From the NCBI GenBank assembly GCA_964552755.1, contig CAZKHX010000001.1, positions 84,517 to 148,516 on the forward strand: 64,000 bases of DNA, read 5' to 3'. The notes beneath the pieces are model-generated. The model was not told where the DNA came from, did no database searches, and saw only the letters and a program-made list of their open reading frames with translations. Position 1 is the first letter of the stretch; each line of letters starts with the position of its first letter. The translations under genes and the position numbers were made by a program. This document shows, in pieces, positions 15,913-19,866 of this stretch. This DNA is from Candidatus Micrarchaeota archaeon. Lineage in GTDB: Archaea > Micrarchaeota > Micrarchaeia > Anstonellales > Bilamarchaeaceae.

Positions 15913-15978
15913 TTGCCCTTTTTGAGAAAAAGGGCCCAAAAACCATATATGCCTAAGCGGCCATTAACCTGTGATAAT

Positions 15979-16521
15979 ATGAGAGGGGCTGAAGCGGTGC
16001 TTGTGCCGGAGGAATTCCTCGGGAAGGAAATGCTCAGAAAGGACCGCATGAGGAAATCCTACCGGCTGCCGGAACTGGACAAGCGGCTGCGCAGGGAGCG
16101 CACCCGCAGGGAGGCGCGCCTCCTGCACAAGGCGAAACTCGCGGGCGTTTCCGCACCCATCGTTTACGAAGTCACTGATTACACATTGCTCATTACGCGC
16201 ATCCGGGGGCGGAAGCTCTCAGAAAAGCCCGCGGAGCTCCGGGAAGCGGGGAGGGTGCTTGCAAAGCTCCACGATGCGGGGATAATACACGGGGATTTTA
16301 CGCCATACAATATAATTGTGGGCAGGGAAGGGCTGCATGCGATAGATTTCGGCTTGGGCTTTTTCTCGCGGAAAATTGAGGACCAGGCAGTGGACCTGAT
16401 TACCATGCTGAAGTCCCTGAGGAAAAAGGATGAATTCCTGAAAGGCTACCGCCGGTGCAAGAACTATCCAAAAGTGATGGAAAAAGCTGAAGAGATACGG
16501 AAGAGGGCGCGCTACCAATAG
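15979..16521 (+). CDS. bud32: KEOPS kinase Bud32
   Basis: GAEA, KSYRLPELD, RTRREARLL, IIHGDFTPYNI and IDFGLG motifs. Confidence 0.92.
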   Translation: MRGAEAVLVPEEFLGKEMLRKDRMRKSYRLPELDKRLRRERTRREARLLHKAKLAGVSAPIVYEVTDYTLLITRIRGRKLSEKPAELREAGRVLAKLHDAGIIHGDFTPYNIIVGREGLHAIDFGLGFFSRKIEDQAVDLITMLKSLRKKDEFLKGYRRCKNYPKVMEKAEEIRKRARYQ

Positions 16522-16552
16522 GATTTTAAAGCGCCCCAGCGCAATTTTATAC

Positions 16553-16813
16553 GGATGGGCTAGGCGGGGGCCAGGGGTCCCCATCCTGCAAATCCCCTTT
16601 AGGCAGGCTGAACGCCCGGGGCGTTGCCTGTTTTTTCGATGCCTTTCGTTGTAAGCGTCGAAGCCTTCCCTTCTAGGTTGGCTAAACCGTGCGAACCGGG
16701 TCAGGCCGGAAGGAGCAGCCCTAAGCGCGTTTTGCCAAGCTTAGGAGCAAGGAGGTGGAGCTGAAAGCGGAAGCTCCTTCGGGAAGACAGATGGCAATCC
16801 GGGAAGCCCATCC
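16553..16813 (+). ncRNA. ffs: Signal recognition particle RNA (7S-type, ~261 nt)
   Basis: Terminal helix GGATGGGCT/AGCCCATCC, Alu-like 5' domain and helix 8 GAACC-GGG-TCAGG-CC-GGAA-GG-AGCAG-CCC-TAAG. TATA TTTTAAA at 16524-16530. Confidence 0.92.
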
Positions 16814-16844: not shown

Positions 16845-17495
16845 ATGAATGCCAAGCTCAACGCATGCAAAGGCGCGATGGAGCACGTAAAGGACGGGAT
16901 GGTCCTCGGGCTCGGGAGCGGCAGCACCGTTGCCTATTTCATAGACCTCATTGGGGAGGAGATGAAGAAGGGCAAGAAATTCGTTTCCGTCGCGACCTCC
17001 TTTGACACGGAGATGCTTGCAAAAAAGAATGGGATTCCAATAGTCTCCCTGGACATGGTGAAGAAGATTGACCTGGCGGTGGACGGCGCGGACATCGTGA
17101 AGGACCACCACGTGCTGAAGGGCGGCGGCGGGGCGCTCGCCCGCGAGAAGGTGGTCGGCTATTTTGCGGACAAGCTCATAATCGTGATAGATGGGAGCAA
17201 GCTGAAGCTGGAATCCTACCCGATTGTGGTTGAGGTGCTGCCTTTCTCCTATTCCCTGGTGATGAAGCAGCTGGAAGGGATGGGGGCGAAGCCCGTGCTC
17301 CGCACAGGCGGGAAGAAGGTCGGGCCGGTTGTTTCGGACAACGGCAACTTCCTCATAGACGCGGAGATGGAAATCAACGATGCGAAAAAGCTGGAAATAG
17401 AGCTCAACCAGATCCCAGGCGTAGTGGAGAACGGCATCTTCACCAAATTCTCAAAGATAATCGTCGGTGACGAAAAGGGGCACAAGGAACTTTGA
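16845..17495 (+). CDS. rpiA: Ribose-5-phosphate isomerase A
   Basis: GLGSGST, DLAVDGAD and KGGGGALAREK motifs. Confidence 0.95.
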   Translation: MNAKLNACKGAMEHVKDGMVLGLGSGSTVAYFIDLIGEEMKKGKKFVSVATSFDTEMLAKKNGIPIVSLDMVKKIDLAVDGADIVKDHHVLKGGGGALAREKVVGYFADKLIIVIDGSKLKLESYPIVVEVLPFSYSLVMKQLEGMGAKPVLRTGGKKVGPVVSDNGNFLIDAEMEINDAKKLEIELNQIPGVVENGIFTKFSKIIVGDEKGHKEL

Positions 17496-19736: not shown

Positions 19737-19866
19737 GCAGGAGTGGCGGAGTCTGGAAAACGCGCCAGACTCAAGGCAAGGGGCCGATTTTCCGTCGCGA
19801 AACCCGGCCTTTGGTGAGCCATCTGGTGGCCTAGCGCCTACGCAGGTTCAAATCCTGCCTCCTGCA
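19737..19866 (+). tRNA. tRNA-Leu(CAA) with 45-nt intron (19776-19820) at canonical 37/38
   Basis: Acceptor GCAGGAG/CTCCTGC, anticodon stem CCAGA/TCTGG with CAA at 19772-19774, long variable arm and GTTCAAATC T-loop. BHB: CTCA pairs with intron TGAG, with 3-nt bulges. No encoded CCA. Confidence 0.95.

Follow-up and report, generated by a model that had tools for sequence, protein, structure and literature searches.

A Micrarchaeota SRP RNA lacking helix 6 and the absence of detectable SRP19 among sampled DPANN archaea

Introduction

Two types of SRP RNA come closest to the one described here. The canonical archaeal SRP RNA (Rfam RF01857, e.g., that of Methanocaldococcus jannaschii) possesses a helix 1, an Alu domain in which the loops of helix 3 and helix 4 pair with each other, a long helix 5 and a helix 8 whose loops bind SRP54 and whose apex is a GGAA tetraloop, its partner being an archaeal-type SRP54; structures of the archaeal S domain are available (1LNG and 2V3C, listed in PMC2905702). 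A review of 2010 states that SRP19 has been found throughout the archaeal subgroups, invariably accompanied by helix 6, and that an adenosine clamp joining helices 6 and 8 is probably a feature of all archaeal and eukaryotic SRP RNAs (PMC2905702). The other type is the Bacillus-type large bacterial SRP RNA (scRNA, RF01854), which consists of helix 1, the Alu domain, helix 5 and helix 8, is devoid of helix 6 and bears a conserved GCGUYGA/GGAGC internal loop in helix 5.

Two further archaeal cases are pertinent. Archaeal SRP54 can bind SRP RNA without SRP19, and SRP19 is dispensable in Haloferax volcanii, its deletion being viable (PMC2905702, PMC6098224); as cited in these two papers, the deletion strain of Yurist, Dahan and Eichler (2007) indicates that an archaeal SRP works without SRP19. 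This strain is, however, a laboratory deletion whose RNA keeps helix 6, whereas in the DPANN genomes considered below both helix 6 and SRP19 are naturally absent across phyla. The SRP RNA gene of Thermoproteus is also non-canonical, being circularly permuted and requiring bulge–helix–bulge processing (Plagens et al. 2015, PMC4731332) but, unlike the gene described here, which is colinear and insert-free, it is accompanied by the retention of helix 6 and SRP19.

The gene in question lies in a stretch of 64,000 nucleotides, the whole of which is hereafter referred to as the window, belonging to a Micrarchaeota MAG of the order Anstonellales, whose 14 contigs add up to 1.09 Mb and whose completeness, as judged from marker counts, is 84.6%. 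Neighbouring proteins indicate the placement in Micrarchaeota, and a relative of the same order is deposited as Anstonellales. Its RNA shares with the canonical archaeal type all the elements listed above, but differs in being without helix 6, in having a helix 8 tip of 2 instead of 3 bp and an eroded UGUNR linker, in falling 2.9 bits under the archaeal cut-off and in the fact that no SRP19 was found in the host genome; an adenosine clamp between helices 6 and 8 is consequently impossible. With the Bacillus type it has in common the identical set of helices (1, Alu, 5 and 8) and the internal loop of helix 5, but its host is an archaeon, its partner is an archaeal SRP54 and not Ffh, and its relatives grade into clear Archaea_SRP matches.

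The SRP RNA gene and its anatomy

The Archaea_SRP model (RF01857) matches positions 16553–16813 (+) over its entire length (model positions 1–317 of 317) with 93.6 bits (E 3.7e-22), a score that does not reach the gathering threshold of 96.5 bits, and the Bacteria_large_SRP model (RF01854) matches positions 16555–16811 over model positions 1–256 with 91.5 bits in cmscan, above its gathering threshold of 60 bits. In the clan competition of cmscan the bacterial family is the best member for the RNA of the window and for two relatives and, because this competition keeps the best family only, it is in the relatives that the alignment to the archaeal model was viewed. Of the features that define RF01857, the RNA displays helix 1, the Alu domain (helices 2–4) with its loop–loop pairing and the helix 8 loops with a GRRA tetraloop, while of those that define RF01854 it displays the succession of Alu domain, helix 5 and helix 8 without helix 6. 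The fold of this strand has an energy of −118.7 kcal/mol and is more stable than those of its shuffles (z = −2.77). The claim of the sequence-only reading that a genuine SRP RNA of ~261 nt is encoded here thus holds for exactly these 261 positions, and on the evidence of the two covariance models and of the fold the segment is an SRP RNA gene whose ends, expression and structure are predictions.

The gene occupies the intergenic space between a RIO-type kinase-like ORF that ends at 16521 and the ribose-5-phosphate isomerase A gene that starts at 16845 (Table 1). The AT-rich box ATTTTAAA, located 23–30 nt upstream of the 5′ end of the RNA, is a candidate promoter element, its position being that expected in archaea. 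A sigma-70 promoter scan, which is irrelevant for archaea, yielded one “terminator” within the RNA (16611–16625) that is merely the base of helix 5. Elsewhere in the window (19737–19866, +) Rfam finds, at 47.9 bits, a tRNA whose variable arm is long and whose anticodon loop is followed by an intron of ~48 nt; it is probably a tRNA-Leu(CAA) and was missed by ARAGORN, which reported no tRNA in the window.

Table 1. Features of the SRP RNA locus (positions in the window)
Feature	Position	Strand	Basis
Upstream neighbour, RIO-type kinase-like ORF, outside the RNA	15913–16521	+	Pfam RIO1, E 1.8e-8
AT-rich box ATTTTAAA, candidate archaeal TATA box	16523–16530	+	Read from the sequence
SRP (7S) RNA gene, 261 nt, without helix 6	16553–16813	+	Archaea_SRP and Bacteria_large_SRP matches, fold z-score
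Helix 1, 5′ strand, pairs with 16805–16813 over 9 bp	16553–16561	+	Minimum-energy fold, outer pairs of both Rfam models
Alu (small) domain: helix 3 (16566–16582), helix 4 (16585–16607)	16562–16614	+	Covariance-model alignment, high posterior probability
Helix 5, 5′ strand; holds proposed hairpin 1 (16635–16662) and conserved motif AAGCGUCGAAGCC (16653–16665)	16615–16688	+	Pairs with 16729–16803, covariation
Helix 8, SRP54-binding hairpin	16689–16728	+	Near-exact match to helix 8 consensus of both Rfam models
Helix 5, 3′ strand; holds GGUGGAGCU (16754–16762), proposed hairpin 2 (16757–16777) and unpaired CUCC (16774–16777)	16729–16803	+	Fold, covariation
Helix 1, 3′ strand	16805–16813	+	Minimum-energy fold
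Downstream neighbour, ribose-5-phosphate isomerase A, outside the RNA	16845–17495	+	Pfam Rib_5-P_isom_A, E 4.4e-53

The loops of helices 3 and 4 in the Alu domain, AGGGG and CCCCU, are complementary and in the alignment of the relatives they switch jointly to AAGGG and CCCUU, i.e., they covary as expected of a loop–loop pairing; the UGUNR linker of this domain has shrunk to AUC. From 16615/16803 helix 5 proceeds as a single imperfect, unbranched helix into helix 8, which is characterized by an asymmetric loop (GAACC/UAA), a symmetric loop (CAGG/AGCA), a CC/GG tip and a GGAA tetraloop (16708–16711).

The tip, CC-GGAA-GG, has a 2-bp stem that is 1 bp shorter than in the RF01857 consensus. Of 71 Micrarchaeota SRP RNAs, 67 have an 8-nt tip of this kind (a 2-bp stem plus GGAA or GAAA), and in six SRP RNAs of this phylum CC/GG has jointly changed to UC/GA, a further instance of covariation. 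The short apical stem pointed out in the sequence-only reading is therefore real and typical of the phylum. The usual 3-bp tip occurs in the other DPANN phyla examined and, since these too are devoid of helix 6, the short tip represents a Micrarchaeota trait and not a part of the loss of helix 6.

Absence of helix 6 in the window RNA and in its relatives

In the minimum-energy fold CUUCUAGGUU-GGC pairs with GCC-AAGCUUAGGAG and the pairing continues straight through AAAC/GUGC into helix 8, so that not one nucleotide separates helix 8 from the 5′ strand of helix 5 at the site where helix 6 is inserted in canonical archaeal SRP RNA; no GNAR-capped helix 6 is present in this fold on the 5′ side of helix 8. 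The continuity of helix 5 with helix 8, leaving no room for helix 6, had been proposed from manual folding and is confirmed. The sequence-only reading would have been refuted had the segment 16635–16662 proved to be a GNAR-capped helix 6, but the hairpin drawn there has a non-GNAR loop of 12 nt, lies 27 nt before helix 8 and displays no covariation.

Alignments of the relatives to the archaeal model lead in the same direction. In two members of the same order (L003 and L004, scoring 137.7 and 127.4 bits, respectively, on Archaea_SRP) the 40 helix 6 positions of the model are replaced by 0–1 nt with the rest of the RNA being aligned, and the exact deletion of these 40 positions recurs in an Aenigmatarchaeota, a Woesearchaeota and a Pacearchaeota genome (L137–L139) as well as in two Altiarchaeota (L181:1501-1776 (+) and L183:1501-1776 (-)), whose RNAs score 160–169 bits on the archaeal model. 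By this alignment helix 6 is deleted, not hidden, in these relatives. The occurrence of RNAs without helix 6 in genomes of Altiarchaeota, Aenigmatarchaeota, Woesearchaeota and Pacearchaeota, in which SRP19 is likewise not found (see below), indicates that the trait spans DPANN, including the free-living Altiarchaeota. An SRP RNA was identified in 132 of the 151 Micrarchaeota genomes sampled (mostly 258–281 nt long), in 25 of 26 Altiarchaeota (~267–309 nt) and in 75 of 81 genomes of the phylum Nanoarchaeota (nearly all 263–278 nt).

Some ~20 Micrarchaeota SRP RNAs are longer (288–312 nt) and none of the 13 that were inspected has a hairpin 5′ of helix 8: ten have a hairpin on its 3′ side, in two others its loop contains an insert, and the remaining RNA has inserts in both helix 5 and the Alu domain. 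An apparent exception within Micrarchaeota, and the only one in bins assigned to this phylum, is G036 (L002:1501-1827 (+)), whose canonical SRP RNA of 327 nt has a GGAG-capped helix 6 and scores 174.6 bits. This candidate was rejected; it lies on a contig of 3.9 kb, the neighbouring gene of which is 100% identical to a gene that a sister sample carries on a Methanomethylicia scaffold of 216 kb (cf. L168 and L169), an identity that identifies the contig as mis-binned.

Several of the length variants deserve mention in their own right. In three Micrarchaeota genomes belonging to three families (G100, L145:1-305 (-); G030, L013:1501-1812 (-); G028, L015:1501-1821 (-)) an insert of 45–53 nt is located exactly within the GGAA loop of helix 8, and its excision between GGCCGGA and AGGAGC restores the helix 8 consensus. 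The predicted fold in G100 and G028 is a relaxed bulge–helix–bulge, in which a 4-bp helix (GCCG/CGGC) is flanked 5′ by a bulge of 3 nt and 3′ by an AAA(G) loop, whereas the fold predicted for the insert of G030 is different; congeners of G100 are without the insert. The insert is probably a tRNA-type intron in an SRP RNA, and the processing known from Thermoproteus is relevant to these intron-like inserts. In the Micrarchaeota families f13–f15 (L120, L132, L152–L159) the SRP RNA is 292–301 nt long and carries an extra hairpin of ~30 nt with non-GNAR loops on the 3′ side of helix 8, in a position that is the mirror image of the helix 6 site, followed by a conserved GYRCAA-like motif. Finally, members of genus g3 of the window's family (L022:1501-1775 (+), L140:1-280 (+) and L151:1-312 (+)) have a short extra Alu hairpin between helices 3 and 4 and in one of them (G024, L151) the 5′ strand of helix 5 is, in addition, extended by an insert of ~35 nt.

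SRP19 and the protein partners of the RNA

A search of the host genome with the Pfam model of SRP19 (PF01922) gave no match and an unfiltered hmmsearch of all its six-frame ORFs of at least 35 aa, carried out with an HMM built from five SRP19 proteins, returned noise only (best E 1.8). Given a completeness of 84.6%, absence from this single genome is no proof by itself. Among all DPANN genomes sampled, PF01922 was found in 0 of 299, i.e., in none of 151 Micrarchaeota (133 of them of high quality, and including single-contig assemblies such as G015 from the window's own family), 26 Altiarchaeota, 81 genomes of the phylum Nanoarchaeota and 41 Aenigmatarchaeota. As to positive controls, the same model scored above cut-off in 39 of 41 Thermoproteota, corresponding to ~95% detection, and in five of five other archaea with 75–88 bits (Methanothermococcus, Methanosuratincola, an Odinarchaeota MAG, a Methanomassiliicoccales genome and Methanoperedens). 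The sensitivity of the search is high, if imperfect, in that it missed SRP19 in the Sulfolobus acidocaldarius control and in two of the 41 Thermoproteota, and it is blind to a very divergent SRP19 or to a non-homologous replacement protein.

The host genome does encode an SRP54 of 448 aa, whose M domain scores 88.9 bits, and the SRP receptor FtsY. The NCBIfam scores for SRP54 and Ffh (346 and 333 bits) are both below cut-off and do not separate the two types, so matches to PDB sequences were used instead; these give 308–330 bits with archaeal SRP54 structures vis-à-vis ~210–235 bits with bacterial Ffh, and by this measure the protein is of the archaeal type. The sequence-only reading had envisaged that this archaeal S domain is bacterial-like and independent of SRP19, and had indicated a search of the genome for SRP19 as a check; the search having found none, with helix 6 absent and both SRP54 and FtsY present, its proposal is supported.

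Helix 5 is a continuous rod

A less fortunate part of the same reading was that two extra hairpins would branch from the middle of helix 5. The complementary stretches do exist, namely UUCGAUGC/GCGUCGAA at 16635–16662 (hairpin 1) and GGAGCU/AGCUCC at 16757–16777 (hairpin 2), so that stems of eight and six standard pairs, respectively, can be drawn in the window sequence. Furthermore, the window's family has conserved both GGAGC and GCUCC, with 75% pairable cells, and some within-strand pairing appears in the single-sequence folds of 13 of 55 relatives. Nevertheless, the minimum-energy fold, the RNAalifold consensus of the 55 relatives, which is one rod, and both Rfam models all pair the disputed nucleotides across the two strands, and 42 of the 55 single-sequence folds, including that of the window RNA, are pure rods with 42–59 cross-strand pairs and zero within-strand pairs.

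Covariation favours the cross-strand arrangement. The 19 cross-strand pairs that involve disputed nucleotides were scored in 26 sequences of the same family, the window being excluded; 86% of the pairings are standard and the covariation score is 0.65, compared with a mean of 0.28 and a maximum of 0.34 for the shuffles, and when the cross-strand partners are slid by 1–3 columns only 40–47% remain paired. In the family set of 27 sequences, in which the window is included, double compensatory changes are found in 13 of the 19 pairs. Hairpin 1, on the contrary, is no better paired in the 26 sequences than shuffled columns (61% vs 59%). As for hairpin 2, its pairing is at the level of the shuffles (75% vs 77%), as is its covariation (0.07 vs a mean of 0.10), and no double change was found in the sequences of the window's family, a combination that is the signature of conserved columns and not of a conserved helix. 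Over all 55 sequences cross-strand pairing drops to 73%, compared with 86–87% within the family, probably because MAFFT aligns the variable helix 5 imperfectly across families. In addition, GCGUCGA on the 5′ strand and GGAGC on the 3′ strand match a conserved internal loop that, in the bacterial large SRP consensus, is formed across the two strands.

By this comparative evidence the disputed nucleotides are the two strands of an ordinary long helix 5, of which the hairpins are alternative pairings, and a helix 5 interrupted at its middle by a junction from which both hairpins emerge appears highly unlikely; the branching claimed in the sequence-only reading is accordingly not borne out. In the window's family GGAGC and GCUCC may still form a transient local hairpin, their complementarity being kept in 75% of the cells, with no covariation. 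As a separate observation, the unpaired CUCC of the 3′ strand (16774–16777, +) is kept throughout the window's family beside segments of helix that covary; it may serve as a family-specific contact with a protein or the ribosome, or as a hinge.

Discussion

The reading that we favour, with a probability of roughly 85%, is that the window encodes a functional Micrarchaeota SRP RNA of archaeal descent, made of helix 1, the Alu domain (helices 2–4), an uninterrupted helix 5 and helix 8, which does without helix 6 and SRP19. Since no SRP19 is found in the host genome, the particle most probably consists of two parts, SRP54 and RNA. The M domain of the archaeal-type SRP54 would bind the conserved helix 8 loops unaided, a capacity shown in vitro in other archaea, and the GGAA tetraloop, normally capped by SRP19, would be left exposed as it is in bacteria. 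In the bacterial SRP the tetraloop helps to recruit FtsY, while a distal site in helix 5 activates GTP hydrolysis. The free tetraloop and the conserved internal loop of helix 5 (GCGUCGA/GGAGC) could likewise serve the docking of the receptor in a bacteria-like manner and, by analogy, the distal GTPase-activating site might correspond to this internal loop, which is separated from the tetraloop by ~45 nt of the strand.

The bacterial aspect of the RNA and the silence of the SRP19 searches could each be read otherwise. Since Bacteria_large_SRP is the top clan member in cmscan for the window RNA and two of its relatives, a bacterial large SRP RNA gained by horizontal transfer might come to mind, but such an origin is hardly credible, for, in spite of a deletion of 40 positions, the score on the archaeal model is no lower (93.6 bits), the relatives form a continuum in which other Micrarchaeota and Altiarchaeota sharing this deletion reach 138–169 bits on that model, the partner SRP54 is of the archaeal type, and the feature is common to four DPANN phyla. 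Bacterial descent with an Ffh partner is thus not what was found in this Micrarchaeota genome, with its archaeal-type SRP54 and relatives that grade into Archaea_SRP; judged from these comparisons, the likeness to the Bacillus type is one of architecture, not of descent, the layout having been reached within the archaeal lineage.

It might also be that the function of SRP19 and helix 6 is hidden, either because SRP19 has diverged, or because its gene lies in unassembled DNA, or because some replacement small RNA-binding protein clamps helix 8. The incompleteness of the host genome, the true SRP19 genes missed by Pfam among the controls and the difficulty of detecting the small, fast-evolving proteins of DPANN lend this possibility some substance; what makes it very improbable is that helix 6, the binding site of SRP19, is itself gone from the RNA, that the failure to detect SRP19 extends to all 299 DPANN genomes, single-contig assemblies included, as opposed to ~95% detection in Thermoproteota, and that even the unfiltered search of the host genome gave nothing but noise.

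No paper linking the loss of SRP19 or of helix 6 to DPANN was found in the searchable library. A practical consequence concerns annotation: an RNA that remains under the Rfam archaeal threshold and is “bacterial” by clan competition is bound to be mislabelled or missed by annotation pipelines.

As to evolution, the lack of helix 6 and SRP19 might be a single character shared by the sampled DPANN (Micrarchaeota, Altiarchaeota, Aenigmatarchaeota and the phylum Nanoarchaeota, including Woesearchaeota and Pacearchaeota) and not a scattered by-product of genome reduction, a proposal that we regard as tentative and rather doubtful. If true, it would be a rare genomic change supporting DPANN as one clade inclusive of the free-living Altiarchaeota. 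If, moreover, the archaeal root separated DPANN from all other archaea, parsimony would favour the view that the bacterial-like SRP of two parts retained by DPANN is the ancestral one and that helix 6 and SRP19 were added afterwards, on the stem from which the other archaea and the eukaryotes arose.

The finding of whole archaeal phyla without the SRP19 module would mean that this module is dispensable in nature, beyond the Haloferax deletion strain. Its presence or absence provides a character that bears on two disputes, namely whether DPANN form one clade and what the ancestral form of the SRP was, and the DPANN phyla would offer biochemistry a natural minimal archaeal SRP consisting of SRP54 and an RNA with an Alu domain.
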